DNA of 64,000 nucleotides from a phage, in the sequence record PQ724393.1. One strand, given 5' to 3'. A model generated the notes under the pieces. It ran no database searches, had not been told where the DNA came from, and saw nothing but the letters and a program-made list of their open reading frames with translations. Shown here piece after piece: positions 45,724-62,753 of the stretch (position 1 is the first letter of the stretch; each line of letters begins with the position of its first letter). The position numbers were made by a program, and so were the translations under genes.

Positions 45724-46065
45724 CTAATAAAAACTTTTTTCACCTGCTTGCCCACTAAACCATGCGGATTGAGTGTTCTCTTTCCGTTGGTGTTTAATAC
45801 GAATAAGGTATTCGTTCCTGATGGCGCAGAGTTCATCTCTGAAGTCGACTGCCAACTTAACCTGCTTACGGTCTAGATTTATTAAGGCCTGCGTCTTCGC
45901 GGCCAAGGCCAGTCTCTTGTAGTCTCCTTCTTCACAATCGGTTTTGTAAACCTTCTCGGCGAATTGGTGTTTAAATTCATTATCATAGTCTTCAATAGAC
46001 TGTTTCATGGCATTAGAGTATTTCAACTCTGCTTTTATAAGGTCATAACTAAATTGTTCGAACAT
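45724..46065 (-). CDS. hypothetical protein (113 aa)
   Basis: Track ORF. Confidence 0.5.
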   Translation of the reverse strand: MFEQFSYDLIKAELKYSNAMKQSIEDYDNEFKHQFAEKVYKTDCEEGDYKRLALAAKTQALINLDRKQVKLAVDFRDELCAIRNEYLIRIKHQRKENTQSAWFSGQAGEKSFY

Positions 46066-46075
46066 AATTTCACCT

Positions 46076-47056: not shown

Positions 47057-47093
47057 TATATTCTCCGTTTCACTCAGTAGATTTGATAGGTCC

Positions 47094-47122
47094 ATAATAA
47101 CATGCTCTACGAGGTTGTAAAC
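47094..47122 (-). promoter_or_regulatory. putative early promoter
   Basis: GTTTAC-17-TATTAT upstream of P-loop NTPase gene. Confidence 0.45.
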
Positions 47123-47140
47123 ACTTTTTTGCACTAAACC

Positions 47141-47165
47141 CAAAAAAGGACCCCGAAGGGTCCTA
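47141..47165 (-). terminator. rho-independent terminator
   Basis: AGGACCC-TTCG-GGGTCCT followed by TTTTTTGGG. Confidence 0.7.
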
Positions 47166-47387
47166 AATTGCGCTCCAATAATTATGGAAGCGGATATTAT
47201 TGATAGCCCAGTTAATACAACGTCTTATCTGCTTAGTCGTAGGCTTGCATACGTACTTGAAATTGATTCTTCTACCGGTTTCTCTACAAACTACTTCAAG
47301 ATACCAACGACAGGTTTTATGAGGTCTTCCATATGACAGGAAAACCTTGATTTCTTCTTTAACGGTAATAAGAGTTGTGGTTGTCAA
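47163..47387 (-). CDS. small basic protein, PTKRQ-motif family
   Basis: CKPTTKQIRRCINW; stop inside terminator hairpin. Confidence 0.45.
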   Translation of the reverse strand: MTTTTLITVKEEIKVFLSYGRPHKTCRWYLEVVCRETGRRINFKYVCKPTTKQIRRCINWAINNIRFHNYWSAI

Positions 47388-48369: not shown

Positions 48370-49133
48370 TATTCACCTCTTTCATAGTCTTCAATAAATT
48401 GCATAATTAAACGTTGATAGTTGGATTTGGGATATCCTAATTTACTAATATAGGTTCCGAAAGCTCCACGCTTAGGCCTATTTAATTTAACCCATAAAGA
48501 ATAAAGCAAATCATAATCTTGCCAATGTTTCCCTATTCTTTGCTTTGCTTTAGAAGCATCAGATTGCCTCTTTTTAGTCTCTGGATTATTTAGAGATTTC
48601 TTAACAGCATTCGAATGCCTTTCTCTAACATCAGGGCGTTTAAATGCTTCTTTAATAGCTTTAGAAATTTTCTCTTTAACTTCAGGACGGTTTTGAGCTT
48701 CTATTTGAGCCGCCGACATTTTATCTTTTATTTCTGGTAGACTCATAGTTATAGAACGTTTATTTCTATATTCTTCAGTCTTCCATATTTCTTTCATCGT
48801 ATTTGAGTGAATTTCTGAAAATTTTTCTCTAACTAATTGATACCCTCTAGAAGTTAGTTTAAGATTTCTTCCTAAAGAATCCTCGCCAAAGTTATAAAAT
48901 GACCACCAGGCATAAATTAATCCTGAAGAATCAGAATGAATTCTAGCTAGAAGCCAGTGTGCTATAAAATGTTCTCTAGCTGTCAACAGAACCAAATTAT
49001 TAGGTTCATCACTCCCGCCAATACATGACGGGATTATATGATGGGACTCTGTATAAAAATTTAATTTGGATTTGTCTAATCCTCTAAGTTTACCTCTTTG
49101 GATTAGACTATCATAAAGCTTGGTATAATTCAT
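48369..49133 (-). CDS. HNH homing endonuclease (Mob-like)
   Basis: HNH core ESHHIIPSCIGGSDEPNNLVLLTAREHFIAH; repetitive basic C-terminus; no SD before ATG 49133. Confidence 0.7.
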   Translation of the reverse strand: MNYTKLYDSLIQRGKLRGLDKSKLNFYTESHHIIPSCIGGSDEPNNLVLLTAREHFIAHWLLARIHSDSSGLIYAWWSFYNFGEDSLGRNLKLTSRGYQLVREKFSEIHSNTMKEIWKTEEYRNKRSITMSLPEIKDKMSAAQIEAQNRPEVKEKISKAIKEAFKRPDVRERHSNAVKKSLNNPETKKRQSDASKAKQRIGKHWQDYDLLYSLWVKLNRPKRGAFGTYISKLGYPKSNYQRLIMQFIEDYERGE

Positions 49134-49591
49134 TATGGATTTGTTTTGTCCTCGAAGTGGATTACAGGACACATCTTAGATTTACGAGCTTTAATGTATT
49201 GAATAACGATATTTTCTTTAGTTTCTCGGCCTTCACGCTCAGCTTGAATACGTTGCCATTCCTTTTCTTCTCTACGGGCATCATACCATGCGTGTAAATT
49301 CATCGCACCAAATGCCAAACCGATGGATAGTGCAATAATAAGAGCTATTACAATCAACCCTAAAACAAACCCTAGACTCAACAGAACAGGAGTACTTAAT
49401 ACAAAGAAATGCTCTAATACACCAGCTCCTGCAACAGTTAATCCAAAAAGCGTACTACCTGCAACAACAGCACAAGCAAAACAAGCCCAAATCATTTTCC
49501 AGAAATATGCACATAAAGAGTGTGGTCGAGAATGGCTGTCATAAAAACGGTCGTGTAATTTAACGTGCCAAGAGTTTGAATTGATAATCAT
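49133..49591 (-). CDS. membrane protein (152 aa)
   Basis: SD AAGGAAA; long hydrophobic segments then basic tail. Confidence 0.55.
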   Translation of the reverse strand: MIINSNSWHVKLHDRFYDSHSRPHSLCAYFWKMIWACFACAVVAGSTLFGLTVAGAGVLEHFFVLSTPVLLSLGFVLGLIVIALIIALSIGLAFGAMNLHAWYDARREEKEWQRIQAEREGRETKENIVIQYIKARKSKMCPVIHFEDKTNP

Positions 49592-49601
49592 AATATTTTC
49601 C

Positions 49602-50162
49602 TTAAGAGTTCATAGTTGGGATAACAGAGTTCAGATAAGAGACTAAAGCCTTAAGCTCGTCCTTAGTAAATACCACTTCATTTTCACCGTCATGTCTTTG
49701 GACAATGGACAACAAATCACGACCCTGATGTTGATACACGGATAATTCGGTATCATAATCCAGTTCTTCTTCATCACCTTCAAATGTTTCACTAGAACGA
49801 ATTACAGCATCTTGTCCAGGGACTTTCCATTCAACTTCTGGCTTGCATTCTTCCTGGAAGAGTTTGAAAATACATTTAAAGAAATTACTAGAATCGCTAA
49901 TGCTTAGGCATTCCGTATCAGTTTCGATATTAAACCCGTTGTCATGGTTATAAATCTGGGCCCACATATCATCATTAATATCAAATACACCTCTAAAACT
50001 ACCATTAAGATATTCGTGTTTGTCCAAAACCTTTAAATCGTAAAGTGGTTTGATATCTTGGATAGTCAGTACGATTTTATCGTCTTCTTGTGAAAGCACA
50101 ATTGCATTATCAACTACTTCAGCGGTCAGGTCACCAAACAGCCCAGATGTTTCAATAATCAT
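49602..50162 (-). CDS. hypothetical acidic protein (186 aa)
   Basis: Track ORF. Confidence 0.5.
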   Translation of the reverse strand: MIIETSGLFGDLTAEVVDNAIVLSQEDDKIVLTIQDIKPLYDLKVLDKHEYLNGSFRGVFDINDDMWAQIYNHDNGFNIETDTECLSISDSSNFFKCIFKLFQEECKPEVEWKVPGQDAVIRSSETFEGDEEELDYDTELSVYQHQGRDLLSIVQRHDGENEVVFTKDELKALVSYLNSVIPTMNS

Positions 50163-50172
50163 TTTCCGTTCC

Positions 50173-50355
50173 TCATTTCACATTTTGTTTAATAAAATTT
50201 AACAACTCTTTAAGAGCTTCATCTTCTTCTTTAGAAAGCCTGCTGCATTCACTAGCTGGGTAATCATTGCAAAACGCAGTTTCAAATCTAGCAACTGTAC
50301 CTGCATAGGCCTCGATAAGCTCTTCAAGCTTTAAATGCTTTTCTTCGGTTTTCAT
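50173..50355 (-). CDS. small acidic protein (60 aa)
   Basis: Resembles other ~60-aa acidic ORFs at 50676, 52822, 53016. Confidence 0.45.
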   Translation of the reverse strand: MKTEEKHLKLEELIEAYAGTVARFETAFCNDYPASECSRLSKEEDEALKELLNFIKQNVK

Positions 50356-50358
50356 AAA

Positions 50359-50556
50359 TCACCGGTTATGTTTTAAAATACTATAAAGCTCTTCGACCTG
50401 GCTCGCATTCAGACAAATCATATCATTTTCTTGTTGGAGCGTAATTCCACCTTTTTCTTCCCAATCTTTAACAAAGATGTCATCGTCAGATTCTTCAACA
50501 TCTGCCAAGAGGACAATAATACCGTCTTCAGAATTACCACTTGGGTCGTATAACAT
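50359..50556 (-). CDS. hypothetical acidic protein (65 aa)
   Basis: Start reset to ATG 50556 with SD GAGGAAA. Confidence 0.45.
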   Translation of the reverse strand: MLYDPSGNSEDGIIVLLADVEESDDDIFVKDWEEKGGITLQQENDMICLNASQVEELYSILKHNR

Positions 50557-50675
50557 TACAGTTTCCTCGCTAACCATGAAAAGAATAAACCAATTAAAAC
50601 AGGCCCTATAAGCATTGTTAACCAAGCCCAGGGTTCTAAGTAATAAATCATCTCATACTCCTGTGCCATCAGCCA

Positions 50676-50858
50676 TTATGCTTTCAACTCATTAAGATAC
50701 TCAACCAATGCAGCTTTAGAATTAGCCAAATCTCGTTTACACTGCTCTATTCCGGAATATGAATAGCCTTCACAATATTCAACGGCCAGGTCATTGGATG
50801 CGTTTTCAATGTGCTGGGCGAGTTTAAGGATTTGTTCAATCTGTTCAGTAGTTAACAT
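50676..50858 (-). CDS. small acidic protein (60 aa)
   Basis: Track ORF; paralog family. Confidence 0.45.
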   Translation of the reverse strand: MLTTEQIEQILKLAQHIENASNDLAVEYCEGYSYSGIEQCKRDLANSKAALVEYLNELKA

Positions 50859-50862
50859 AATA

Positions 50863-51099
50863 TCACCAGTATTTGTTGATAGTAGAAATTAATTCTTGGG
50901 CTTGGGTGGTTTTCAGTTTACATCCACAACCCTTTAATGTGTCTTTAAGGAGCCACGGTTCCTTGAGCTCGTCTTTTTCTAGGCGAATTCTATATCCTCG
51001 ATAATCGGCAAAGATACTTCGGTCGTCGAATATCTTAATCTCAAGGATACGACCGTTGATTTCATATTCTAATGAAACCGTAGTACTTGTAAGTTTCAC
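50863..51099 (-). CDS. hypothetical protein (78 aa), GTG start
   Basis: SD GAGGAGAA before GTG; conserved promoter upstream. Confidence 0.5.
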   Translation of the reverse strand: MKLTSTTVSLEYEINGRILEIKIFDDRSIFADYRGYRIRLEKDELKEPWLLKDTLKGCGCKLKTTQAQELISTINKYW

Positions 51100-51127
51100 A
51101 CCGTTCTCCTCATTAGTTGATAGGTCT

Positions 51128-51156
51128 ATAGTATCACGTTCCTAGAGGATGTAAAT
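51128..51156 (-). promoter_or_regulatory. conserved early promoter (variant -35 ATTTAC)
   Basis: ATTTAC-17-TGATACTATAGACCTATCAAC. Confidence 0.55.
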
Positions 51157-51162
51157 ACCTAA

Positions 51163-51193
51163 ACGAAAAAAAGGTCCCACCGAAGTGAGACCT
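51163..51193 (-). terminator. rho-independent terminator
   Basis: AGGTCTCAC-TTCG-GTGGGACCT followed by TTTTTTTCG. Confidence 0.65.
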
Positions 51194-51197
51194 TTGA

Positions 51198-51581
51198 TTA
51201 TTCTAACGTTAACAAATATTTAGTCTGGTAAAAGACCCCAGTGATATCGTCCAAAGTCGACTGGATGGCCTTAGGAAGGGTATCATAGATTTTATCAGAT
51301 GCTTTAAGAAGCTCGTCAAGGAAATCTACAGGGTCCTTAGGCAAGTCTGAAGCAGACGGTAATGATGCTTTATATTCTTTGCCACTGAATCCAAGATATT
51401 GCTCACTAAATTGGTCCAGCGGTCCTTGAACTTCTACATAATAGAAGTCATACGCTTTGTGTCTTGCATAGCTTTTGGTTTCTAAATGGGCTGACTTAAA
51501 ATAGGCTAAAGAAACCAGTAGCCAACCAATATAAGAATCCACTTCAGACCCTCGACCGGGTACGAAATCATTGAACTTCAT
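51198..51581 (-). CDS. hypothetical protein (127 aa)
   Basis: Track ORF; terminator downstream. Confidence 0.5.
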   Translation of the reverse strand: MKFNDFVPGRGSEVDSYIGWLLVSLAYFKSAHLETKSYARHKAYDFYYVEVQGPLDQFSEQYLGFSGKEYKASLPSASDLPKDPVDFLDELLKASDKIYDTLPKAIQSTLDDITGVFYQTKYLLTLE

Positions 51582-51861
51582 CTTCCACCTTCATTAGTTT
51601 TGCATAACGCTCTCCGATGGCACGACCCTCAATTGAGCACGCTTCTATAGTCCGACAACTTGATATCTTCCAAGAAGCCGTAACATAGGCCCAATAGTCT
51701 TCGGAGGCCTTTATGCTAGGTCTACTCATTTGCGCATAAACAGGCATCGCACTACTAGCAAATGCATCCATCAATTTATCGTGAGTATTATTTGCTAGTG
51801 AAACTGTAGGGCTTAAACATCCCGCCATAAGGATACAAGCCGCTGTACGGAAAATATCCAT
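51568..51861 (-). CDS. putative secreted/lipoprotein (97 aa)
   Basis: Signal peptide with LMAGC lipobox-like motif. Confidence 0.5.
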   Translation of the reverse strand: MDIFRTAACILMAGCLSPTVSLANNTHDKLMDAFASSAMPVYAQMSRPSIKASEDYWAYVTASWKISSCRTIEACSIEGRAIGERYAKLMKVEDEVQ

Positions 51862-51953
51862 ACAAAAGTCCTTTGTTGTTTTATACTATTTGCCTTTCGG
51901 CCTTAACCGATAGCGATTACCAAAAGCTAAAGCTCTACGGTTAGTATTATTAT

Positions 51954-52232
51954 TTATAGCTTTTTAAGCTTACGACAATAAGAATAGAACACGTCGTTAA
52001 AATTATGCTCAACCCAATTCCTCTGTATAGGCGAGGTAATGGAAAGCATATAATGGGCTTTAATTAAATCCATCCCATTTTTATTAGGACATTCTTTATT
52101 ATTAGCATTATACGTCGCCGCTACAACCTCTATCTCTCTTTTGTAAGCCACATCATCCATGATAGGCGAAAGAACAATATAAGAAATAGCCACAGCGAAC
52201 GCTAGAATTAAAATCTTTGAATTTAGGTCCAT
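51954..52232 (-). CDS. small membrane protein (92 aa)
   Basis: N-terminal TM helix. Confidence 0.5.
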   Translation of the reverse strand: MDLNSKILILAFAVAISYIVLSPIMDDVAYKREIEVVAATYNANNKECPNKNGMDLIKAHYMLSITSPIQRNWVEHNFNDVFYSYCRKLKKL

Positions 52233-52239
52233 AGTACCC

Positions 52240-52812
52240 TCAACTCGTTATTTCTATCCAGTGCTTCCTGCACAATGACACGTAAGAATCGTTGCCACCT
52301 ATAGAAACTTGGGCTCCGTCCTTAATTGCGACACCATCTTGGACCCTAGCAGTCATAGTAGCTTTACGGCCGCAATGGCACACACCTTTGTACTCAACGA
52401 GCTTATCTGCTGTAGCGAGTAATTCAGCAGAGCCAGGAAACAGTTTACCCTGAAAATCAGTTCTTAGTCCATAACACATAACTGGAACATTATAATTGTC
52501 TACTATCTTCGCCAGTTGTTTTATCTGTGCAGGTTCTAAGAACTGTGCTTCATCCACAAATACGCAGTGGATATCTTTTTGAGATTCAGCCCAACGATAG
52601 AACTCGTATAGGTCCATATCCGGAGTCACTGCATTAGCCTCTTGACTAATCCCTATACGAGACGAAATGGTATGGCTTGATTCTCTATTGTCTATCGCAG
52701 GCTTTAAAAGGAGTACGCCCATACCACGTTCTTTGTAGTTATGAGCTGCCGTTAGCAATGAAGCTGTCTTACCTGAGTTCATTGCCGCATAGTGAAACAT
52801 CAAACTTGCCAT
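52240..52812 (-). CDS. tk: thymidine kinase
   Basis: 190 aa; MASLMFHYAAMNSGKTASLL...VFVDEAQF...CHCG matches recalled T4 Tk. Confidence 0.9.
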   Translation of the reverse strand: MASLMFHYAAMNSGKTASLLTAAHNYKERGMGVLLLKPAIDNRESSHTISSRIGISQEANAVTPDMDLYEFYRWAESQKDIHCVFVDEAQFLEPAQIKQLAKIVDNYNVPVMCYGLRTDFQGKLFPGSAELLATADKLVEYKGVCHCGRKATMTARVQDGVAIKDGAQVSIGGNDSYVSLCRKHWIEITS

Positions 52813-52821
52813 ATCACCTTC

Positions 52822-53007
52822 TTATTCTGTAATACTTTCCAGATAATTTTCTAAATCGTCTGAAGCCTTATTAAGGGCTTCTAGCGCTTTATAATAGTCT
52901 TCACGGGAGTAATATTCTGTATGAAGTTCTTCGTCGTATTCGCTTTTAGCATCAACAACAGTTTCAATCATATCCAGAATTTTATTTTTCTGTTCTTTAG
53001 TAATCAT
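52822..53007 (-). CDS. small acidic protein (61 aa)
   Basis: Paralog of 53016..53201. Confidence 0.45.
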   Translation of the reverse strand: MITKEQKNKILDMIETVVDAKSEYDEELHTEYYSREDYYKALEALNKASDDLENYLESITE

Positions 53008-53015
53008 AATATACC

Positions 53016-53201
53016 CTAAAGCGTATTCACATAAGCAATTAATTCGTTTTCTTTCTCATCAAATCTATTAGCAAATTCTTCCAGACGTTCGGCATCTATC
53101 GGGCCGTATTCATCGTAAAAAGCGTTTGCTTCGGTATGTTCATCCAAAAGCTCATGAATAAGCTCAAACAATCTACTTTTCTGACTAATACTTAAACTCA
53201 T
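53016..53201 (-). CDS. small acidic protein (61 aa)
   Basis: Paralog of 52822..53007. Confidence 0.45.
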   Translation of the reverse strand: MSLSISQKSRLFELIHELLDEHTEANAFYDEYGPIDAERLEEFANRFDEKENELIAYVNTL

Positions 53202-53404
53202 TTAGGTTCACCATATCGCACAAATTTAGGATGTTCGCAATAACCGGAATGAAAACCTTCACCCTTATGATTAGAACATCCTTTATTAGAACAGTACCAC
53301 CAGTAATCATATTCGCAATTCATTTCATCATTGCATAAAGCTGCGATTACCGGCCATTCACATTTTTCACATTTAGCCGTTTTAAGAATTCTAGCTTGGC
53401 TCAT
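53198..53404 (-). CDS. cysteine-rich small protein (68 aa)
   Basis: Start reset to ATG 53404 (ATGA overlap); multiple Cys pairs. Confidence 0.45.
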   Translation of the reverse strand: MSQARILKTAKCEKCEWPVIAALCNDEMNCEYDYWWYCSNKGCSNHKGEGFHSGYCEHPKFVRYGEPK

Positions 53405-53613
53405 AACCATTGCACCTTTAAGCAATATTCTTCTACATGCTGTTTACGTTTATTTTTATCTATAAAAGTATATTCAACATATTCACCGATATACCATTTA
53501 TCAGTGTTGTGTTGACTTTTTATAGGGCATTTAGTTACTCGGGTTTCGGTCCAGCGCCGAATAATTTCAGCTTTATTTTTAGGGTCAAACGGATGCGGGT
53601 AATGTGCTTTCAT
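53401..53613 (-). CDS. hypothetical protein (70 aa)
   Basis: Track ORF; SD GGTGGA. Confidence 0.45.
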   Translation of the reverse strand: MKAHYPHPFDPKNKAEIIRRWTETRVTKCPIKSQHNTDKWYIGEYVEYTFIDKNKRKQHVEEYCLKVQWL

Positions 53614-54064
53614 AATCCACCACTATTAAATCAATATCAGGGGTAAACATGTCGATTAATTTAGAAACCTTTTCCCAATCACCGCCAGCAATACCACAAC
53701 CGATGCGAGGAATATAAATTCTTGGTTTAAACAAAAGGGTTTCTGCTTGTAGATTTAATTCTATCATACAGTTTACTAAAGCACCGTAATCAAGATTAGG
53801 GCCGGGTTCGTATTGGGTGTATAAATTATAGCACATTGCAAATCCATTAGGCTTATGTTTAAAAACAATAGACATATCGCCTAATTTATCACGAGAACCG
53901 TATTCAGTAGTGGTCTTATCAATTTCTAAGATTTTAGGATAGGCTCTTGCTAATTGACCGGCCACGCCTGAACCCATAGTATGAAAACAGTTGCACCCAT
54001 GTGCAATAATATTACCTTGGAGAAACAGGGCGACGATATCGCCCTTAATATAATCAATAATCAT
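53585..54064 (-). CDS. macro-domain protein (ADP-ribose binding/hydrolase fold)
   Basis: 159 aa; NIIAHGCNCFHTMGSGVAGQL and PRIGCGIAGGDW match macro-domain signatures. Confidence 0.65.
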   Translation of the reverse strand: MIIDYIKGDIVALFLQGNIIAHGCNCFHTMGSGVAGQLARAYPKILEIDKTTTEYGSRDKLGDMSIVFKHKPNGFAMCYNLYTQYEPGPNLDYGALVNCMIELNLQAETLLFKPRIYIPRIGCGIAGGDWEKVSKLIDMFTPDIDLIVVDYESTLPASV

Positions 54065-54417
54065 TTAGAGTTTAATCCTCGGTTGTAGGAGTCAACGAGT
54101 CTGTCTACCATAGACGCGCACATTTCTTTGTACTTTTTATCAGACGGAACACATTCAGTAACGTTTAGACGTTGCTCGTATCTTTTAGAAAGAGTTTTCT
54201 CTTTCATTCGGCGATGCTCGACGTCGTTCTGTCCATCTTTAAAAGCAGCTGTTATTTTTGAACTGAATTCAATAACGCATTCAGTATTACTCGGATGACA
54301 ATAATCTTTTGCTGTACGGGTGGCATACTCAACAATTGAATTATTTGTATCATCAACTTGTGACGCTAATACTCCCGGAGCAATCAACATAAGCGCTATA
54401 GTCATCTGCTTAATCAT
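54061..54417 (-). CDS. secreted cysteine-containing protein (118 aa)
   Basis: N-terminal signal peptide (cleavage near LAS-Q). Confidence 0.5.
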   Translation of the reverse strand: MIKQMTIALMLIAPGVLASQVDDTNNSIVEYATRTAKDYCHPSNTECVIEFSSKITAAFKDGQNDVEHRRMKEKTLSKRYEQRLNVTECVPSDKKYKEMCASMVDRLVDSYNRGLNSK

Positions 54418-54957
54418 TTAATACACCGCCTCAAACATCTTTTTAGATTTTAGATAATTGGCCTTTTCTAGAACTTCAGAAGCATATTTACTGCCTGCTT
54501 TGACGTCCCAGCCCGCATTATAAGAAGCAATCGCTTTTCTCAGGTCACCTTTGTGAACATCAATCCAATAAGACAGTTCAATGTAGGCCCAAGAGGCACT
54601 GTTCTGTCGTTTTTGGACCATACGAATTATTTCTTTGTCTGACATCTTCCAACCTACCTGTTGAACACGACTTCTTAACGTAGGCAAGTAATTTTGGAAC
54701 ATGCCATAAGCATGGTGCTTATCTTTATTTAAACCCTGATTAATTCCGGCGGATGATTCCTGCCATAGTAATCCGGCCATGATATATCCTAATCCTTTTT
54801 GATTAGGGTTTTCTTTGAACTTTCCCGACTTTTGGTATTGTTCACCGAAAGCATACGCATAATGCAAATTGTCGAGTTGCTCACTGTTGAAAGTAGGCTC
54901 TACGCTATAGGCAGACATACTAACTGTCAATAGTAAAGTGGCTAATACTTTTTTCAT
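54418..54957 (-). CDS. secreted lytic-transglycosylase-like protein (SLT domain)
   Basis: Signal peptide; LWQESS catalytic-Glu motif, AYGMFQ, SYNAG. Confidence 0.55.
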   Translation of the reverse strand: MKKVLATLLLTVSMSAYSVEPTFNSEQLDNLHYAYAFGEQYQKSGKFKENPNQKGLGYIMAGLLWQESSAGINQGLNKDKHHAYGMFQNYLPTLRSRVQQVGWKMSDKEIIRMVQKRQNSASWAYIELSYWIDVHKGDLRKAIASYNAGWDVKAGSKYASEVLEKANYLKSKKMFEAVY

Positions 54958-54969
54958 GAGACCTCATTA

Positions 54970-55428
54970 TTAAAGATAGATTACTTTCGTGCTGGTTTTA
55001 CCTTCTAAACGTTTAGAGTTAACAAATGCCATACGACATTTTAATGAATATCCTTTATCAGGATGTTTACGATCTACGGTCATACCCAACCATAAGGTTT
55101 TATCAGTAATCTCGAGACGCAGCGGACGATACACTTTACCTGGGACAATTTCAGATTCTATGTCAGGAAGAGGCTCCTGGATTAAAAATTCATGGATTTC
55201 TTTAACATGGTTATGGAGTTGCTTGAATAAAGCAAAAACGTATTTTTCGTCAATTTCACGTTGGATAGCACGGTCCAACAAGTGATTAGAGTACTTAATA
55301 AAGAAAGCTGGGACCCCGCTCTTGATGGCGGCTTTTTTGATGGACGCGTTAAGTTCACGAAATTCGGTTTCGAACTGACGACGTAATTTGTTGCGGCGGA
55401 TGAATACTTCTGAATTAATTTCTGACAT
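54970..55428 (-). CDS. regB: RegB endoribonuclease
   Basis: Start reset to MSEINSEVFIRRNKLRR...; 153 aa; strong similarity to recalled T4 RegB; promoter and SD AGGAGA upstream. Confidence 0.8.
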   Translation of the reverse strand: MSEINSEVFIRRNKLRRQFETEFRELNASIKKAAIKSGVPAFFIKYSNHLLDRAIQREIDEKYVFALFKQLHNHVKEIHEFLIQEPLPDIESEIVPGKVYRPLRLEITDKTLWLGMTVDRKHPDKGYSLKCRMAFVNSKRLEGKTSTKVIYL

Positions 55429-55456
55429 TTTGTAATCTCCTGTAGTTGATAGGTCT

Positions 55457-55485
55457 ATAGTATCATGTCTACAGGAGATGTAAAC
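55457..55485 (-). promoter_or_regulatory. conserved early promoter upstream of regB
   Basis: GTTTAC-17-TGATACTATAGACCTATCAAC; arms CTCCTGTAG/CTACAGGAG. Confidence 0.65.
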
Positions 55486-55490
55486 TGCTT

Positions 55491-55769
55491 TTAGTATTTT
55501 TCCTCGGGTTGGAAAACAGAACGACAGGCCCACATGGATGCTTCTTTCAAGCGTTCGATTGCCGTACGAATCTGGGTAATGCGTTCATGAGCCTGGTCTA
55601 GTTCTTGTTCAGAAACCTCTTCGGCATCTAAGTTCATATAATAGGTAACATGTTCTTCTTCTAATGCTTTAAAGATTAAGCCTAATCGAACTTCAGCATC
55701 TTTAATGGCATTCACTTTACTGATTTTATCGTCGGTATGTGACTTGTAACCTTTGATATCTTCAATCAT
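55491..55769 (-). CDS. hypothetical protein (92 aa)
   Basis: Track ORF. Confidence 0.5.
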   Translation of the reverse strand: MIEDIKGYKSHTDDKISKVNAIKDAEVRLGLIFKALEEEHVTYYMNLDAEEVSEQELDQAHERITQIRTAIERLKEASMWACRSVFQPEEKY

Positions 55770-55984
55770 TTCACTTCCTCATCAGATGCAATATCATATT
55801 CTACAAAACGAAGGCCATCGTATCCACCACTAACAGAGATATACGTAGTCGGGTAAACAATTTCTTTACCATTCCATTGACCGCCGTCCCAACATTCCAT
55901 AAAGCCTTGTTCGCCCTGTTCGTGGAACCAGTCAACAAACATCTTCAGAGCTTCATCAGAGCCTTCAATTGTCAATTTAGACAT
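55766..55984 (-). CDS. hypothetical protein (72 aa)
   Basis: Track ORF. Confidence 0.5.
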   Translation of the reverse strand: MSKLTIEGSDEALKMFVDWFHEQGEQGFMECWDGGQWNGKEIVYPTTYISVSGGYDGLRFVEYDIASDEEVK

Positions 55985-56273
55985 ATTTTTTCCAGTCAGA
56001 AATCATATGAATCTCTTGGTCATACGTCAAGAGACTGCGAGTAATAATACCCTTGCACGGCCCAGAGATGAACTCGAGAGTGAAGTAAGGAACCTGTTTC
56101 ATTAATCGGATGCTTGGGGCATGGCATCTAAAACGAGAGCCCTTAAAGGGCCCTGACATGAATACATATTCTAATGGATAGAAATAAGCATATTCGAAAT
56201 TTGCAGTAAGGTCCTCTCTTCGAACCTTACGTGAGAAATAACAGAACTCAAAAAGTTCTTCATCAGTCATCAT
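55977..56273 (-). CDS. hypothetical protein (98 aa)
   Basis: Track ORF. Confidence 0.5.
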   Translation of the reverse strand: MMTDEELFEFCYFSRKVRREDLTANFEYAYFYPLEYVFMSGPFKGSRFRCHAPSIRLMKQVPYFTLEFISGPCKGIITRSLLTYDQEIHMISDWKKYV

Positions 56274-56797
56274 TGCATTCCTATCACAAAGAACAGCGGC
56301 AGAGGTTTAGAACCCTGGCACATAAATTTGTTAATCATTACCTGGTAAGCTTCATAGAACTTATCCATCGATGGAAGGCGCATTGGCTCTTCGATAATAA
56401 TCAATAATCGAGTAACTGATAGACCACGATACTTATGGAAGTTATCTTCGTCTAAAAATGATCGCACGGTATCATATACAATAAACCCAGGACCTTCTAC
56501 TTGAAGATGTGGATGAGCCTTAGAAACCCTTTTTATTACATTACAGATTTCGCGTGACCGGTGCGAAGAACTCGACATAACAATCACATCATTACCCTTG
56601 GAAACCCAATCAGCTGCGAACTGGGCAAGGGCACTTGTTTTACCTGTTTGGCGTCCGCCGTCAAGTCGAAGAGTACCAAACTCTTGCATTCTTGAAGTAG
56701 GTTCGTACCAGGTGTATTGGTTTGAGTCTAATCGTTCAATGGCGCGTTCAGCGAAGGCGTGCATTAAGGTTAGATAAATGGGAGTTAAAAATTTCAT
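56270..56797 (-). CDS. P-loop NTPase-like protein (175 aa)
   Basis: Walker A GGRQTGKTSA; Walker B-like LLIIIEEP. Confidence 0.5.
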   Translation of the reverse strand: MKFLTPIYLTLMHAFAERAIERLDSNQYTWYEPTSRMQEFGTLRLDGGRQTGKTSALAQFAADWVSKGNDVIVMSSSSHRSREICNVIKRVSKAHPHLQVEGPGFIVYDTVRSFLDEDNFHKYRGLSVTRLLIIIEEPMRLPSMDKFYEAYQVMINKFMCQGSKPLPLFFVIGMQ

Positions 56798-56946
56798 AGT
56801 GGTCTCTTAGTTGTGGGGCCATTCCTTGGCACATAATTCATCCCTTTCTGCATTTACCCATTACCGCACTTGGGCTCGACCTTATTACAGGTTGGTGGGA
56901 GTCCCTCACGGAATTGTGAGGTCCAGGTTGCTCCCATTTTTAAAGA

Positions 56947-57306
56947 TTAAAGATGGTCGAGTGCCGGATTATGAGGCTTTTCTGCTTTAGCAGTATTTTT
57001 GTGCCAATCCGATTTAGAAACACGAATTGCATCCGCACCGTAAGAGCTCTTAAGGAGGCCCTTTTTATTGTAAACACTTATAGAAGTAAGGGTGTCACCA
57101 TTCCAAGTAGCATGGACGAAGTTGGATTTAGATTTAAGTTCTTTAGCCAGGCTCTGGTTGGTAGCCATAGAAGCAAAGTCTTTACCTGTAACTTTAAAAA
57201 CTTCAGATGGGTTCAGCCCTTCTTTAGCCTTAGCCAATTGTTCAGGAGACATAGCTTCGTTAATGCGCTGAGTAGATTCAGTAATAAATTGTTGGTAAGT
57301 TTTCAT
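56947..57306 (-). CDS. ipII: internal head protein, IpII-like
   Basis: N-terminal MKTYQQFITE matches T4 capsid-targeting sequence (MKTYQEFIAE); 119 aa. Confidence 0.6.
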   Translation of the reverse strand: MKTYQQFITESTQRINEAMSPEQLAKAKEGLNPSEVFKVTGKDFASMATNQSLAKELKSKSNFVHATWNGDTLTSISVYNKKGLLKSSYGADAIRVSKSDWHKNTAKAEKPHNPALDHL

Positions 57307-57320
57307 ATTATTCCTTAAGT

Positions 57321-57350
57321 TGATAGAAGTATTCTACCACGGATTTAATT
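57321..57350 (-). promoter_or_regulatory. putative promoter upstream of ipII-like gene
   Basis: ATTTAC-18-TAGAAT. Confidence 0.45.
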
Positions 57351-57765
57351 AAGCGTAAATAGCCTTGCCATAGTGTTTGTACCAGGTAGGACGTTGTGCA
57401 ATTTTTTCATCCAAACGGGTTTGTGAAATAGCGATAGAAGCTTCGTGAGGAGCATAATCACCACGGAATTCCTGAGGAATATCACTAATGTCCTGGACCG
57501 TAGTATCTTTGATATTAAAGCCACGTTTTAAACATTCGGCTATAAGCTCGATTTGACGCTTACGTAAAAATTCAAGCTTATCGTAAAAGAATGTAACATG
57601 GCCTGCGCCAAGGATAAAAGTAGGACTGATTTTGAAATCACGGACACGTTTACCATTAGCAACATGCTTACGAACTGCACCGAAAACACGTGGTAATTCA
57701 CGATATTCAGCCATTAAGTGTTGGTCAGCCAATTCAGATACTAAGGTAAGGTTGATACGAGTCAT
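57349..57765 (-). CDS. denV: endonuclease V (pyrimidine-dimer DNA glycosylase)
   Basis: 138 aa; [67 protein letters not shown]... nearly identical to recalled T4 DenV. Confidence 0.95.
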
Positions 57766-57792
57766 TTTTAATCTCCTGTAGTTGATAGGTCT

Positions 57793-57821
57793 ATAGTATC
57801 ATGTCTACAGGAGATGTAAAC
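57793..57821 (-). promoter_or_regulatory. conserved early promoter upstream of denV
   Basis: Same 41-nt block as 55457 promoter. Confidence 0.65.
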
Positions 57822-57845
57822 AACTTTTATCAAGTATCGGCTTTA

Positions 57846-58442
57846 TTAATTACCACGGGCTGCATTAGCAACGGCGTAAGCGTACTGAACATTAGCGTCT
57901 TTAAACGTACCTTTAGAGGTATCTATTTCTGCCTTAAAGCCACCTTTAGCCATAACATCAGCAAATTCTTTACGGAAAGCCATTGCATCAAGACCTTTCC
58001 ATGATGATTTGTGCTTGGCAAATTCAAGACCGGCGAAGTTGACAGCCTTAGCCAATTTATTATCAATAGTCCATTTACCTGCTTTAGGTACAACTACCGG
58101 GCCTTTTTGTTTAGAGAACAGTTTTAAATTCCAGCGACGAAGGTCGCCGTCAGCTTTAACAAAAGCTGCGTCCAAGTTACTAGCAACAACATCCTGAATA
58201 TGGCCAAATTTAAGCCCATCAGCTTCAATATTTAGGTCGTTACGCCAGCGAAGTCCTTCCCAGGCGAAAGCTTTAAAGTCAGAAGCTTTTGTAGCTAAAT
58301 ACCGTTCAATAGGAGCTGTTTTAGCGTCAAAACCATTTCCTGGGTTGTCAACGCCATTTCCTCGGTAGGTCCACTCATCTTTATTAATGCCTTGGACCTT
58401 TCCTACAGAAGCTTCGGCGATAAATTCTTTATACGTTTTCAT
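57846..58442 (-). CDS. ipIII: internal head protein, IpIII-like
   Basis: 198 aa; N-terminal MKTYKEFIAEA capsid-targeting sequence. Confidence 0.65.
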   Translation of the reverse strand: MKTYKEFIAEASVGKVQGINKDEWTYRGNGVDNPGNGFDAKTAPIERYLATKASDFKAFAWEGLRWRNDLNIEADGLKFGHIQDVVASNLDAAFVKADGDLRRWNLKLFSKQKGPVVVPKAGKWTIDNKLAKAVNFAGLEFAKHKSSWKGLDAMAFRKEFADVMAKGGFKAEIDTSKGTFKDANVQYAYAVANAARGN

Positions 58443-58495
58443 ACGGGTTCCTTAAAGGTAAATATTTTAATTAGTCTGTTCAATTAACTGTAGAT

Positions 58496-58524
58496 ATACT
58501 ATCACAATTCTAGGAGATGTAAAC
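58496..58524 (-). promoter_or_regulatory. early promoter upstream of ipIII-like gene
   Basis: GTTTAC-17-TGATAGTAT. Confidence 0.5.
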
Positions 58525-58529
58525 TGCTT

Positions 58530-59018
58530 TTATCTATAAGCGGCCCAAGTACCTGTTTTAAATGTTGAAATCACGCGCTTAGCACGGTTAGGGGTTTGCT
58601 TGTACCAACGAGATTGAGCCAGGTTAACTGCCGCATCGTTCCAACGTTTCTGTTGGAGCATACGTAAAGAGTTAGTGAACCCTGCTACACCTGCTTCACC
58701 CATTTGGAAGACCATGTTAATTAAAGCACAACGACGAACTTCATCGAGCACATCATAAACAGGTTTCAATTTAGGATTACGCAGAATAGCTCTACGAGCA
58801 TTATCAACCGACCGGTTAAAGAGTTGTTCTGCTTCAGCCATAGTAATACGACCATTACAAACTCGACCCATAAGCTTATCAAGTTCAGCGCGGGCAACAT
58901 CTTTAGATGGGTTCTTGGTAACTAACTGGCCAATACCAATAGTCCAATAACCTTCAGTGTCTTTATAAAGATTTAAATCAAGACCTTCGTCTTGACGTAA
59001 CATATCAAAAATATCCAT
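58530..59018 (-). CDS. e: lysozyme (endolysin) e
   Basis: 162 aa; [51 protein letters not shown] match recalled T4 lysozyme; SD AGGAGG. Confidence 0.95.
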
Positions 59019-59020
59019 AA

Positions 59021-59048
59021 TACCTCCTGAGTATAGGAGGTATTTATA
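59021..59048 (-). promoter_or_regulatory. gene e late promoter (TATAAATA) plus RBS-sequestering hairpin
   Basis: Coding strand GATATAAATA then ACCTCCT-ATACTC-AGGAGGT, where the second arm is the SD of e. Confidence 0.6.
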
Positions 59049-59498
59049 TCAAAAGAGCGAATCTAAAACCTTAAACATCGACGGGCCCATGACATATTTC
59101 CATTGTGGACGTTTAATCAAGGCAAAAGCATCGAATTCAGGAATCGTACGACCATCAGGGAACGTATGGTAAGCTGTACATTTGCAATTCTTGAACTGCT
59201 CGTGTTCCACAGGCACTGTATATAAGAACAGATGTAGATTCTTATTGCTTGAATATTTGAACTCACCTAGGTCTTTCAGGAATGCAGGATCGTATGCCGT
59301 GAATCCAATCTCTTCTTCGGTTTCACGCATTGCGGCTTGAATAGGCTCTTCGCCTGGTTCTACATGACCTTTAGGAATGTCCCATTTATGACGCATGTTC
59401 TCTGGATTACGAGAGCCTGTTACACGACCCATAACTAGTTCTTTATCAACGGTCATGAACAAAATACCGGCAGATAGTTCTTTAACTTTCTTACTCAT
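59049..59498 (-). CDS. nudE: Nudix hydrolase NudE (e.1)
   Basis: Start reset to ATG 59498 (8-nt overlap with upstream stop); Nudix box GHVEPGEEPIQAAMRETEEEIG. Confidence 0.8.
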   Translation of the reverse strand: MSKKVKELSAGILFMTVDKELVMGRVTGSRNPENMRHKWDIPKGHVEPGEEPIQAAMRETEEEIGFTAYDPAFLKDLGEFKYSSNKNLHLFLYTVPVEHEQFKNCKCTAYHTFPDGRTIPEFDAFALIKRPQWKYVMGPSMFKVLDSLF

Positions 59499-59727
59499 CG
59501 TCTCGTTCCCACGATTGTTTAAAGATATCTTGCATAATAATTTGAAGTCTATTTTCTGATGATGGACTTTCACTATCAGACACTTGAAGCATATAGTCAC
59601 CAATAGGACAGAACATATCCATATCGCTTTCTAAGTCTTCTTTGATTTTCTCTTCTGACGTTCCGGTATCATAGGAATACAGATAAGAATCACATGACTC
59701 AGATTTAATATAAATTGCAATACTCAT
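59491..59727 (-). CDS. hypothetical acidic protein (78 aa)
   Basis: Track ORF. Confidence 0.45.
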   Translation of the reverse strand: MSIAIYIKSESCDSYLYSYDTGTSEEKIKEDLESDMDMFCPIGDYMLQVSDSESPSSENRLQIIMQDIFKQSWERDDE

Positions 59728-60317
59728 TTACGGCATTCCTTAATAAACTCATTTAAATTATGTTTGTTTTTACCTTCGTCGTAAAGACGTTGTTGACGAC
59801 GTAAACGCCATGGCATTTCAATAGCCAAGCACCAAATACTTAAAGCAGCGCCAGCTGTGAAAAGATTCATTAATCCGGCGCCAATAATAGTTCGTTCTAG
59901 CGCATCATTCCAGTTAGCATCGATTAAAAATGAACTCAACACTAACATTGGAAGTAAAGTAATAAAATACGCTACAACATATCGTCCGAACGTAAGCCAT
60001 TCAGTATCGATGAGCTTAGCCTTTCCATCTTGGAGACAAATATACTTATCGTCAGTGCGGGTGATTTTCTTTACCGGTTGCCAACCATTTACGATATAAC
60101 CCATTCTGAACTCCTCAATTAAAAGCTGTTTCATTTCGGCAGTACAACCTGACCAATCTATTGTACTGGCTGAAATTCCTTCATCACAGTCATCGATATT
60201 TCGCCAGGACTTTTTAATAATCATATGTTCACCACTTGGGATAATAATTCCAGCATTTTCCGACCGACGGATGAAGTTTGTATCAATACCCATACAACCA
60301 GGTTCATAAAGGGCCAT
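59724..60317 (-). CDS. membrane protein (197 aa)
   Basis: Two C-terminal TM helices. Confidence 0.5.
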   Translation of the reverse strand: MALYEPGCMGIDTNFIRRSENAGIIIPSGEHMIIKKSWRNIDDCDEGISASTIDWSGCTAEMKQLLIEEFRMGYIVNGWQPVKKITRTDDKYICLQDGKAKLIDTEWLTFGRYVVAYFITLLPMLVLSSFLIDANWNDALERTIIGAGLMNLFTAGAALSIWCLAIEMPWRLRRQQRLYDEGKNKHNLNEFIKECRK

Positions 60318-61003
60318 TACCAGCCCTCCATAGGAAATTCCAGATATACTTGAGCATTAACGCGGATTTCATTTGTAATCTTTTTAACACGGTCGGTATT
60401 ACGAGACACACGACCAAACCAGCGCCACCCGTTACTTACTGCACGAGAACCTGTATGCCATGTTTGCCAATCAAACTGGAGTAACGTGCGGTCAGGAGCA
60501 TCCCACTTGGTTAATTCATTGGACTCAATTTTTTCCAGAACTTCTTTATGCCACTGGCGATAGATAAGTTCGCCTTCAGGAATCTGACTGAACTGTGCAG
60601 TTCCGGTTGCAAAATGAGTAGGACACACATCAGCATTAACAAGACCAAGAATATGTTCAGAATGGTATCGAGGATTATCATAATCAGGTTGCCCTGCGGT
60701 AATAAAGTGTTGACCCACCGGAATATCTGGACGTGGTACATCATCATGGTGGAAGCCTGGAATTGCAGGGTACCAGCCGGGCATTAACATGTGTACACGG
60801 GAATCAAATACGCATTCAACGGCTTTCCACTCATCAGGGAGATTAGTAATAAAGCTACGAGTAATAGGACCACCATTTTGTGCAGCAAAATTCAAATCAC
60901 AGTTAAAGAACATAGGCTCGTTTTTAATATCATCATTAGAAATATGACCTGCAAAACCACCTACTGCACGAGCTTTAGAATTAAAAGTTTTTGGACCGTT
61001 CAT
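60317..61003 (-). CDS. putative Fe(II)/2-oxoglutarate-dependent oxygenase-like protein
   Basis: 228 aa; candidate HxD (GFHHDD) and distal His/Arg (WHTGSRAVSNGWRWFGRVS); SD GAGGAAAA. Confidence 0.5.
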   Translation of the reverse strand: MNGPKTFNSKARAVGGFAGHISNDDIKNEPMFFNCDLNFAAQNGGPITRSFITNLPDEWKAVECVFDSRVHMLMPGWYPAIPGFHHDDVPRPDIPVGQHFITAGQPDYDNPRYHSEHILGLVNADVCPTHFATGTAQFSQIPEGELIYRQWHKEVLEKIESNELTKWDAPDRTLLQFDWQTWHTGSRAVSNGWRWFGRVSRNTDRVKKITNEIRVNAQVYLEFPMEGW

Positions 61004-61017
61004 AATATTTTCCTCAC

Positions 61018-61230
61018 TTACTTTTTGTTGAAAAAGTACATTTTACCTTTAGGAGATAAGGATACACGAAGGGCGTTACCAATACCAACTGAACATTTAA
61101 CCAGGTCAGCAGATTTCAATTCACCAAATGCTTGACGAAGGTCTCCATCACGAGTGTTAACCATCAGGCATTTAGCACCAGCTGCACGAACTTCGTTTAA
61201 CATGTTGATTGCTTGGTTAGAAAGTTTCAT
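61018..61230 (-). CDS. hypothetical protein (70 aa)
   Basis: Start reset to ATG 61230 with SD GGAGAA; track start lies in promoter. Confidence 0.5.
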   Translation of the reverse strand: MKLSNQAINMLNEVRAAGAKCLMVNTRDGDLRQAFGELKSADLVKCSVGIGNALRVSLSPKGKMYFFNKK

Positions 61231-61267
61231 TTTATTCTCCATTTCACTCTGTTGTTTTGATAGGTCT

Positions 61268-61296
61268 ATAGTATCACACCTATAGACCTTGTACAC
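61268..61296 (-). promoter_or_regulatory. conserved early promoter (variant -35 GTGTAC)
   Basis: GTGTAC-17-TGATACTATAGACCTATCAAAAC; inverted repeat GGTCTATAG/CTATAGACC. Confidence 0.5.
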
Positions 61297-61308
61297 TGTT
61301 TTGTGCAA

Positions 61309-62268
61309 TTATTTTTCGAAAGGACGAATTAAATGATGGTTATCTTGGAAACGCTTGATGTAGTCGTTTTCACCTAAAGTCTTATACATATTCACTACAG
61401 CTTGGTAGTTTTCCCAGGCGTACTCGCGGAACCAACCTGAAGTGATTGAGGTACACACTTTCTCAAGAGCCATATAAAAACTTAATGATGGTGAAATATT
61501 GAAGTCATTAGGAACCTGTGAACGTTCTAGTGCCAGGACACAAGTTTCTTCATATACACCAGCCAGTTTAATAGCTTCGGGCAAAGCCTCGAACTTCTCA
61601 CGAGAGGTCATGACTTCAGAACCTTCCTTCATATAAAAGGTATATGCAGGGCGTCCAGCCAATGCTACTGCTTCATGAATAGAGTCATGGTCCAGCGTAT
61701 AAATGGTATCATTAAAGAACGATGATTTGTTTACGTCCAATTTAGGGTGAGAATAGCTCAACGTTTCTTTTTGACGTTGCAACATAATTTCCCGGAGTTC
61801 TTCGTTCAGGGTGATACCTTTATTACGAAGGTATTTGATGTGGGACATAGTTTTCAAGAAGAACGGATTATTCTTCAGGAAACGATGAGAGGTTTTGATA
61901 GCCAGACAGATATCAGGCGTTGCCCAATAGAAACCAGTAAGACGGTCCTTTTTAATATGATTTTCAGCATATTTCAGGAGACGATAACTTGAAGTGAAAT
62001 CTTCGTCTTGAAGCTCGCCAGTAATTTCTCGTACGTTAGTCAGAGCACGGACAATATAAGCTTCAAAATAGGTTTCTTTACCATTGTACATACATTTAAA
62101 GGCCTGGACATCAGGATTATCCACAGGAACATGAGCGCCGAACATCCGGGCTTTAAAGTGATTCCATGAGCCTTGGTCGGCAATGAAATCCCAATCAGAA
62201 TTTTCGATATGCTTACTTTCAATCAGACCAGCGTGGTGCAGTGCACGAGAACCAATAACTAGCATCAT
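61309..62268 (-). CDS. nucleotidyltransferase-fold protein (319 aa)
   Basis: N-terminal IGSRALHHAGLIESKHIENSDWDF fits hGSxAxG...SDxDh minimal NTase signature; SD GAGGAAAA. Confidence 0.5.
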   Translation of the reverse strand: MMLVIGSRALHHAGLIESKHIENSDWDFIADQGSWNHFKARMFGAHVPVDNPDVQAFKCMYNGKETYFEAYIVRALTNVREITGELQDEDFTSSYRLLKYAENHIKKDRLTGFYWATPDICLAIKTSHRFLKNNPFFLKTMSHIKYLRNKGITLNEELREIMLQRQKETLSYSHPKLDVNKSSFFNDTIYTLDHDSIHEAVALAGRPAYTFYMKEGSEVMTSREKFEALPEAIKLAGVYEETCVLALERSQVPNDFNISPSLSFYMALEKVCTSITSGWFREYAWENYQAVVNMYKTLGENDYIKRFQDNHHLIRPFEK

Positions 62269-62281
62269 AATATTTTCCTCA

Positions 62282-62449
62282 TTAATAAAGACGAGTTACT
62301 TCATATTTACCCAGTTCAGATTTTTTTGCTTCAATACGCGTTGCGGCTAGATTAGCAGCCTCTAGTGAAGAAAATTGGACCACTTGGGAAGTATTCTGCC
62401 TTACGCCACCTTGTGGGTGAGTAACAAAAACAATAAGAACATTATACAT
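62282..62449 (-). CDS. hypothetical small protein (55 aa)
   Basis: Not in track; SD GAGGAAAA; own translation MYNVLIVFVTHPQGGVRQNTSQVVQF... Confidence 0.4.
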   Translation of the reverse strand: MYNVLIVFVTHPQGGVRQNTSQVVQFSSLEAANLAATRIEAKKSELGKYEVTRLY

Positions 62450-62470
62450 AATATTTTCCTCAGAGTAAAC

Positions 62471-62710
62471 TTAAATTTCAGCAACGTAATCGTTATGCAA
62501 TTCCCACATATCATCAGAATTATTCTTAATGATAGGAATTATCTCATTAGAGATTTCTTCTGCATAAGGGTCATTGATACAGTGGGCATCTTCAAAACGA
62601 ACACCGTAATCAGACTTCTTATAGGCAAAGCCATAAATCTTTTTAAACTTGGCACGACTAATTCGTACCGGCTCATCAGACTTATCAGACAATGGAGAGT
62701 AATACCACAT
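62471..62710 (-). CDS. hypothetical protein (79 aa)
   Basis: Track ORF. Confidence 0.5.
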   Translation of the reverse strand: MWYYSPLSDKSDEPVRISRAKFKKIYGFAYKKSDYGVRFEDAHCINDPYAEEISNEIIPIIKNNSDDMWELHNDYVAEI

Positions 62711-62753
62711 ATGTTCTCCTCATGTTTGTGTAGGGTAATAGTAACATGATTTT

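Follow-up and report, generated by a model that had tools for sequence, protein, structure and literature searches.

The window analysed here is a 64,000 nt stretch of phage DNA (sequence record PQ724393.1, one strand, numbered from its first letter); it comes from a T4-like coliphage of the Dhakavirus type. The gene under study, 61309..62268 on the minus strand and referred to below as the target, had been taken for a nucleotidyltransferase (NTase) in an earlier reading of the DNA letters that made no use of database searches (the sequence-only reading). The gene and the elements of the N-terminal part of its product are listed below in window coordinates, with amino acids (residues) numbered from the first Met.

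61309..62268, minus strand: complete open reading frame (ORF) of the target, 319 codons plus stop, from the ORF list
62277..62280, minus strand: Shine–Dalgarno sequence GAGG, 8 nt 5′ of the ATG at 62268, read from the sequence
61957..62268, minus strand: putative N-terminal NTase core of the DNA polymerase β (Pol β) type, residues 1–104 (Pfam DUF7277 corresponds to residues 2–101)
62248..62253, minus strand: G6-S7, putative NTase 'hG[GS]' motif at the N-terminus of the first helix, from conservation and model
62188..62196, minus strand: D25-W-D27, putative paired metal-binding carboxylates at the start of strand β2, from conservation and model
62062..62064, minus strand: E69, candidate third catalytic carboxylate on strand 64–73, invariant in a 76-sequence alignment

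The N-terminus of the protein, obtained by translation of 61309..62268 and quoted in the same form in the sequence-only reading, is MMLVIGSRALHHAGLIESKHIENSDWDF. A second in-frame ATG is located at 62265, and the alignment with homologs begins at M1/M2. The protein is 100% identical to the 'hypothetical protein' WNO24107 of Escherichia phage fDHCT2 (99.7% DNA identity) and 98% identical to the product of IME08 orf116, which is annotated as 'similar to RB69 ORF134c'; by sequence comparison the target is assigned as the ortholog of all three genes. Codon differences amount to 42 synonymous and 6 nonsynonymous changes with respect to IME08, and to 123 synonymous and 53 nonsynonymous changes with respect to a relative of 83% identity. 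This excess of synonymous changes argues for an expressed and constrained gene, and the target is accepted as real and as being under strong purifying selection.

Nucleotidyltransferase core

Motif conservation was assessed on sets of 76, 147 and about 130 sequences, the last of which included a minimal 250-residue branch of the family. In the alignment of 76 sequences G6, S7 and A9 are conserved to at least 95%, and D25, D27 and E69 are invariant. The AlphaFold2 model of the target, which was built from the same alignment, has a predicted local distance difference test score (pLDDT) of 92.8 and a predicted template-modelling score (pTM) of 0.87. It comprises, in order, strand β1 (residues 2–5), a helix (6–12) that starts from G6-S7, strand β2 (26–31) with D25/D27, a further helix, a β-hairpin and strand 64–73 with E69, after which the chain is all-helical. 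In this model I5-G6-S7, at the start of helix 6–12, would provide the hG[GS] motif of the Pol β-like superfamily and D25-W-D27-F, at strand 26–31, its [DE]h[DE]h pair, while E69 (in F-E-A) is predicted from its position on strand 64–73 to be the third carboxylate. The sequence-only reading had staked its interpretation on an NTase β-sheet with paired Asp residues; because the predicted sheet carries D25/D27, that interpretation is supported.

The predicted structure is similar to solved NTases, as was found in the structural part of the profile and structure search that the sequence-only reading had proposed. Foldseek with the target model gave MenT1 as the best match (E = 2.5e-3, probability 1.0). 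Next in order were mimivirus poly(A) polymerase, Cid1, TRAMP, CCA enzymes and OAS1, and most of these are RNA-directed NTases. The closest resemblances of the core are to tRNA-nucleotidyltransferase toxins (MenT/AbiEii) and to small antibiotic NTases, ANT(2'') and LnuA. At the level of the predicted fold, assignment of the target to the NTases of the Pol β superfamily is supported.

The regular expression [hydrophobic]GS..h-x(6-22)-D.[DE]h gave a single match in the six-frame translation of the entire window, at the target ORF. The GS...DxD expression matched 127 of 146 diverse homologs, with loose variants in the others, and the motif is judged to be no chance match. The gap from Ser to Asp is 17 residues in the target and ranges from 9 to 22 residues in the family (mode 15). 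The pattern given in the sequence-only reading, hGSxAxG-x(7-10)-SDxDh, fits the target loosely: the seventh residue is His and not Gly, and 12 residues instead of 7–10 lie between that His and the SD pair.

The bilobed plan of the target, an NTase core followed by a helical lobe, is shared with the MenT toxins. Toxins of the MenT/AbiEii family (DUF1814, PF08843), which belong to toxin–antitoxin systems of type IV/VII and to abortive-infection systems, are defined by four motifs, of which I and II are those of Pol β, III provides a Lys and IV an Asp; the key residues are R37, D41xD43, K137 and D152 in MenT1 and D80, K189 and D211 in MenT3 (PMC7450476, PMC11375011). The consensus RxxxDxD of the target family parallels R37...D41xD43 of MenT1. 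A Lys follows the DxD motif at 100 residues in the family (K125), at 96 residues in MenT1 (K137) and at 109 residues in MenT3 (K189). This Lys is in turn followed by an Asp at 18 residues in 86% of the family members, compared with 15 residues in MenT1 and 22 in MenT3. By spacing alone, K125 and D143 of the family are candidate equivalents of the residues of motifs III and IV.

The first motif reads GS in the family and GG in MenT. The family is acidic; the cleft of MenT toxins, by contrast, is electropositive. Neither an antitoxin gene (AbiEi/MenA) nor any conserved neighbour adjoins the target, whose neighbours are unrelated small ORFs, the family is carried by lytic phages and not by bacterial chromosomes, and the C-terminal lobe is different. 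PF08843 gave no match to the target at E ≤ 1; when 147 family members were scanned singly with permissive E-values, the few recurrent matches outside the family itself included sub-threshold ones to this AbiEii model for one member (0.021) and to DUF6036 'nucleotidyltransferase' for three (0.0077), which lends the NTase assignment faint support from sequence. In view of the missing AbiEii match, the missing antitoxin and the differing C-terminal lobe the target is classified as MenT-like in the build of its presumed active site, yet as no member of DUF1814. An origin from a toxin–antitoxin or defence system was considered and rejected, as there are essentially no bacterial homologs and no antitoxin.

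The minimal nucleotidyltransferases (MNT/MntA; Pfam NTP_transf_2), with which the sequence-only reading had grouped the protein, have the GS...DxD signature and the NTase core fold in common with the target. As a family label the term proved untenable: MNT proteins are single domains of about 100–140 residues, whereas the target, with 319 residues, is three times larger, contains a second conserved module and has a longer spacer than the pattern allows. The target matches neither PF01909 nor NF047752 and has no HEPN partner. A HEPN-like C-terminal module, as in kanamycin NTase and the MNT–HEPN pairs, was rejected since the module contains no Rx4-6H motif and no HEPN structure occurs among the structural matches. 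ANT(2'')-Ia (AadB) and LnuA, of 160–180 residues, lack the 215-residue module of the target; unlike them, the target family is restricted to phages, has no resistance context and gives no Pfam match to their families. Class II CCA-adding enzymes and poly(A) polymerases have scores to the target in the grey zone and no Pfam matches, and the target is much smaller and without their head/neck/body/tail organisation.

Helical module and family distribution

The part of the protein that follows the core is a family-specific all-α module of 215 residues, which is conserved even more strongly than the core. Its main elements are the following.

61354..61911, minus strand: Pfam DUF7275 module, residues 120–305, all-α and very highly conserved
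61882..61896, minus strand: K125-T-S-H128-R129 in the first helix past the core; K125 may correspond to the Lys of MenT motif III
61675..61692, minus strand: D193-H194-D195-S-I-H198, a His/Asp cluster at the start of a helix, translation checked against the sequence
61522..61551, minus strand: E240-E241 ... E248-R249 (GVYEExCVLALER) in the long central helix, invariant in the 76-sequence alignment
61423..61440, minus strand: S277-G278-W279-F280-R281-E282 within the block KVCTSITSGWFRE, conserved to at least 90–95%

Most of what the sequence-only reading had described as about 280 residues of unassigned sequence is thus covered by Pfam families, with DUF7277 matching residues 2–101 (1.8e-26, 93.1 bits) and DUF7275 matching residues 120–305 (3.5e-77, 259 bits; Pfam cut-off 27). 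PHROG 2141 matches residues 1–319 at 1.2e-148. All three families are annotated 'unknown function'. Single-sequence and profile searches gave no match of the target to any PDB sequence, NCBIfam model or PADLOC model but only noise (for example PsaB, RNase L and HisJ), and no solved structural relative was found for the helical DUF7275 module.

The usual form of the family has about 310 residues; a compact branch of about 250 residues occurs in Streptomyces, Gordonia and other actinophages. The compact branch is without the hairpin and an insert (residues 32–48, 55–70 and 74–114 of the target are deleted). Residues conserved in both branches are G6, S7, A9, D25 and D27 in the core, and K125, S127, H128, K139, H194, D195, H198, E240, E241, E248, R249, K270, T273, S274, G278, W279 and F280 in the module. 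The compact branch also retains an invariant Glu, in GAE[TV]F, in the region equivalent to E69, where the alignment is ambiguous. Retention of GS, DxD and the invariant Glu in this branch argues that catalysis has been kept across the family. In neither branch were domain fusions detected.

Clustering of the family gives more than 2,000 clusters at 90% identity and at least 1,601 at 50% identity, and 734 phage records contain a member. Its carriers include T4-like phages of enterobacteria, Aeromonas, Acinetobacter and Vibrio, phAPEC8-like phages, Pseudomonas Otagovirus, Stenotrophomonas phage Mendera, jumbo phages of about 360 kb and phages of Streptomyces and Gordonia. A scan of prokaryotes (one genome each of about 185,000 species) gave just five contigs with a family member, all from metagenome-assembled genomes (MAGs), and the DUF7277+DUF7275 family is on this basis effectively phage-only. 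The five MAG contigs, which include contigs of 87 and 167 kb, are from bins of Saccharibacteria, Bacteriovoracales and an unclassified bacterium, and are probably mis-binned phage contigs. The family as such is already catalogued (the Pfam DUFs and PHROG 2141), and a few GenBank annotators have labelled members 'nucleotidyltransferase'.

Gene neighbourhood

In T4 the syntenic region has e.2 directly followed by e.3, without the target gene; phages of the RB69 and Dhaka types carry ORF132c/133c/134c between these two genes. In Dhakavirus and Mosigvirus the insertion relative to T4, between e.2 and e.3, comprises two further ORFs of the window besides the target. These two ORFs and the second NTase of the window are located as follows.

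60317..61003, minus strand: 228-residue ORF, ortholog of RB69 ORF132c, PHROG 1843
61018..61230, minus strand: 70-residue ORF, PHROG 6001
47359..48369, minus strand: the other NTase, 336 residues, ortholog of T4 nrdC.11 (Pfam RlaP, 7e-11; PHROG 388 'nucleotidyltransferase')

No Pfam domain was found in the 228-residue or the 70-residue ORF; among ten neighbouring ORFs the only Pfam domain is the Nudix domain of NudE. A His/Asp-rich stretch of the 228-residue protein, GFHHDD...H, might bind metal. A conserved three-gene cassette ORF132c/133c/134c was rejected, as the neighbours accompany the target only within Dhakavirus and Mosigvirus.

The statement of the sequence-only reading that the window encodes two NTase-fold proteins of unknown role, the target and the product of 47359..48369, stands. 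Both are Pol β-superfamily NTases of unknown substrate from pre-replicative accessory regions of T4-like phages. They differ in that T4 has NrdC.11 but, in the corresponding region, no counterpart of the target, and they belong to different Pfam and PHROG families. Members of the RlaP family are predicted to restore nucleotides at RNA ends in RNA repair (PMC7824862). The Pfam search gave no match of the target to PF10127 (RlaP), and hhalign of the target family against NrdC.11 of the window detected no sequence relationship (probability 0.07%). A relationship or cooperation between the two was rejected on this value and on the distance of 13 kb between the genes, and the two NTases are regarded as independent of each other. 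The nrdC.11 ortholog adjoins nrdC.10 in IME08.

For the neighbourhood count, 80 IMG/VR loci were collapsed to 19 lineages by flank synteny and genes within 10 kb were considered. NAD-related genes were found in 5/19 lineages and tRNA genes in 5/19, compared with 4/19 for the controls, the genes for ribonucleotide reductase (RNR), ThyA and Dut. No partner gene is conserved across the 19 lineages. A neighbourhood centred on NAD/ADP-ribose or on tRNA had looked promising in K354, Acj61, Aeromonas 31, ESCO13, phi-ST2, Mendera and Engineer and was rejected because the lineage count is at the level of the controls; the context supports no more than an 'early accessory region of large phages'.

Individual loci show the following arrangements. 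Prs, a phosphatase and NadV lie near the NTase in Vibrio phage K354 (2210..6603 of its locus), Prs, NadV and an ADP-ribosyltransferase (ART) in an Acinetobacter phage Acj61-like genome, NadV in Aeromonas 31 and Mendera, and Sir2 together with a SLOG protein ('DprA-like') in ESCO13 and phi-ST2; the distance from the NTase to the NAD-centred genes in these unrelated phages is 0.3–4 kb. Within one lineage of jumbo phages of about 360 kb a polynucleotide kinase homolog is found at a constant 3.5–4.4 kb upstream of the NTase. In Streptomyces phage Wakanda the distance from the NTase is 3 kb to a polynucleotide kinase on its upstream side and 4 kb to an RNA ligase on its downstream side. ARAGORN found no tRNA gene in the window (1..64000); in close relatives a tRNA cluster is located 4–7 kb upstream of the NTase, and the equivalent place would be just past the window end at 64000.

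No late promoter TATAAATA was found upstream of the target. The sole T4-type late-promoter box TATAAATA nearby, at 59041..59048 on the minus strand, is 5′ of the lysozyme gene e (58530..59018), as in T4. A late-gene or virion protein was rejected because of the missing box; σ70-like sites occur at chance level. A homolog of internal protein III is encoded at 57846..58442 on the minus strand, with the N-terminus MKTYKEFIAE, which looks similar to the T4 capsid-targeting sequence that is cleaved by the prohead protease; the target NTase has no such leader.

Proposed activity and acceptor

On balance, the evidence leans towards the target being a catalytically competent Mg2+-dependent NTase of the Pol β superfamily that belongs to the T4-like pre-replicative block and stands alone, with an RNA 3′ end as the favoured acceptor. 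The core would bind a nucleoside triphosphate (NTP) with Mg2+ at the GS/DxD/E site, aided by K125; in most family members the Arg four residues before DxD and the Asp 18 residues after K125 would also aid NTP–Mg2+ binding, as in MenT1. The nucleoside monophosphate (NMP) would then be transferred to a hydroxyl group of the acceptor, which would occupy the cleft that separates the core from the helical module. The acceptor site may be formed by H128, H194-D195-H198, E240/E241/E248-R249, K270 and G278-W-F. Since no partner gene is conserved, the enzyme is expected to act alone.

The nature of the acceptor is assigned tentatively. An RNA 3′ end, with the acceptor end of tRNA as the most plausible form, is slightly favoured over a small molecule because the MenT proteins are nearest in structure, the motifs follow a MenT-like pattern and RNA NTases abound in the Foldseek list. 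The protein would in that case be a phage tool by which the 3′ ends of tRNAs are rebuilt or deliberately altered.

Several results weigh against the preferred reading as a whole, of an active NTase with an RNA acceptor. The clade of the target lacks the Arg before DxD and has His instead of Asp at position 143. The Pfam search, which formed the profile part of what the sequence-only reading had proposed, gave no NTase model above threshold for the target. Proximity to tRNA genes is no commoner among the lineages than proximity to the control nucleotide-metabolism genes. Literature searches on the DUF numbers, ORF134c and the PHROG gave no result. With a median isoelectric point of 6.1 and a net charge of −4.7 the family is mildly acidic, and both branches share just four conserved basic residues. 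These features speak against an extended surface for RNA binding and favour a small acceptor.

This last point leads to the alternative that survives best, an NTase for small molecules or nucleotides, which would transfer an NMP to a hydroxyl of some universal metabolite or nucleotide-derived immune signal, as ANT(2'') and LnuA do with antibiotics, and serve as a counter-defence or metabolic tool. It is considered possible, though on the unlikely side. Besides the acidity of the family and the scarcity of conserved basic residues, the invariant aromatic, His, Asp and Glu residues form a pocket-like set, the ANT/Lnu proteins are structurally almost as close as MenT, and the very strong conservation of the module in phages of both Proteobacteria and Actinobacteria would suit a small ligand of universal occurrence. 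NAD salvage, Sir2, SLOG or ART genes adjoin the NTase in some lineages, but NAD genes are no more often close to it (5/19 lineages) than the controls (4/19). No PADLOC or anti-defence annotation and no candidate ligand were found, and both the top structural match and the pattern of motifs are of the MenT kind.

A broader proposal embraces either acceptor: the target may be the founding member of a phage-specific class in which a MenT-like core is joined to a substrate-binding fold not seen before, and which edits or repairs the 3′ ends of tRNAs or nucleotidylylates a universal nucleotide-derived immune signal. This is regarded as rather doubtful. If true, it would mean a new counter-defence or host-takeover chemistry in hundreds of large phages, from those of Proteobacteria to those of Actinobacteria.

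Protein AMPylators include NTase-fold enzymes of similar size with a helical target-binding domain. The target could on this analogy be a protein nucleotidylyltransferase (an AMPylase or UMPylase) that modifies a host protein during takeover or neutralizes a host toxin, as MntA acts on HEPN toxins. Its acidic character and the position of the gene in the early accessory block, beside other host-takeover genes of T4-like phages, are compatible with such a role. GlnE, GlnD, DrrA and MntA are nevertheless not among the top structural matches, the NCBIfam MntA model matched just the other NTase of the window (47359..48369), and that weakly, and conservation as extreme as this, in phages of very different hosts, would call for a protein target that is itself universally conserved. 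A role of this kind is therefore held to be improbable.

Equally improbable is a bifunctional enzyme, an arrangement compatible with the other readings, in which the module would be a second, metal-dependent phosphoesterase centre of the HD/phosphodiesterase (PDE) type, as in the E. coli CCA enzyme and GlnD. The residues H128...H194-D195-x-x-H198...E240/E241/E248 (H...HDxxH...E) are conserved in both branches and the HD doublet is located at the N-terminus of a helix. Comparison with a phage HD phosphatase by hhalign, however, gave a probability of 0.3%, none of the 147 members has a Pfam HD match at E ≤ 10, and the HD/PDEase motif was not found on the corresponding fold. As H128 adjoins K125, the presumed NTP-binding residue, one composite site fits better than two.

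That the protein is a catalytically inactive NTase-fold binder of a nucleotide or partner (a sponge, regulator or scaffold) is very improbable: phage sponges of nucleotide signals are common and the two MenT-like auxiliary residues are substituted in the clade of the target, but in at least 1,600 clusters the complete GS/DxD/E triad and K125 show no or almost no variation, and they are kept even in the pared-down 250-residue branch, which is the signature of retained catalysis.

The preferred reading of the target as an active NTase concerns a large family that is under strong constraint in large virulent phages of very different hosts and has neither an assigned function nor a literature. What the analysis adds is the identification of a MenT/ANT-type NTase core, to which is attached a larger and better-conserved half with a fold without a solved relative. 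This offers experiments a starting point, through catalytic mutants, assays with labelled NTPs and deletion phages. If the acceptor is the end of a tRNA, the phages would possess an equivalent of the bacterial MenT/AbiEii toxins; if it is a small signal, a new anti-defence chemistry would be implied; and if the protein is a routine enzyme of nucleotide metabolism, the finding is an ordinary one.

For annotation, 'putative nucleotidyltransferase (DUF7277/DUF7275)' can replace both 'hypothetical protein' and 'prohead assembly scaffold protein'. The latter name was given to the ortholog of Klebsiella phage vB_KpnM-VAC36, and no support for it was found. The annotated start of the IME08 ortholog (orf116, 19923..20960) is 78 nt too far upstream, as a result of which orf116 overlaps the preceding gene.

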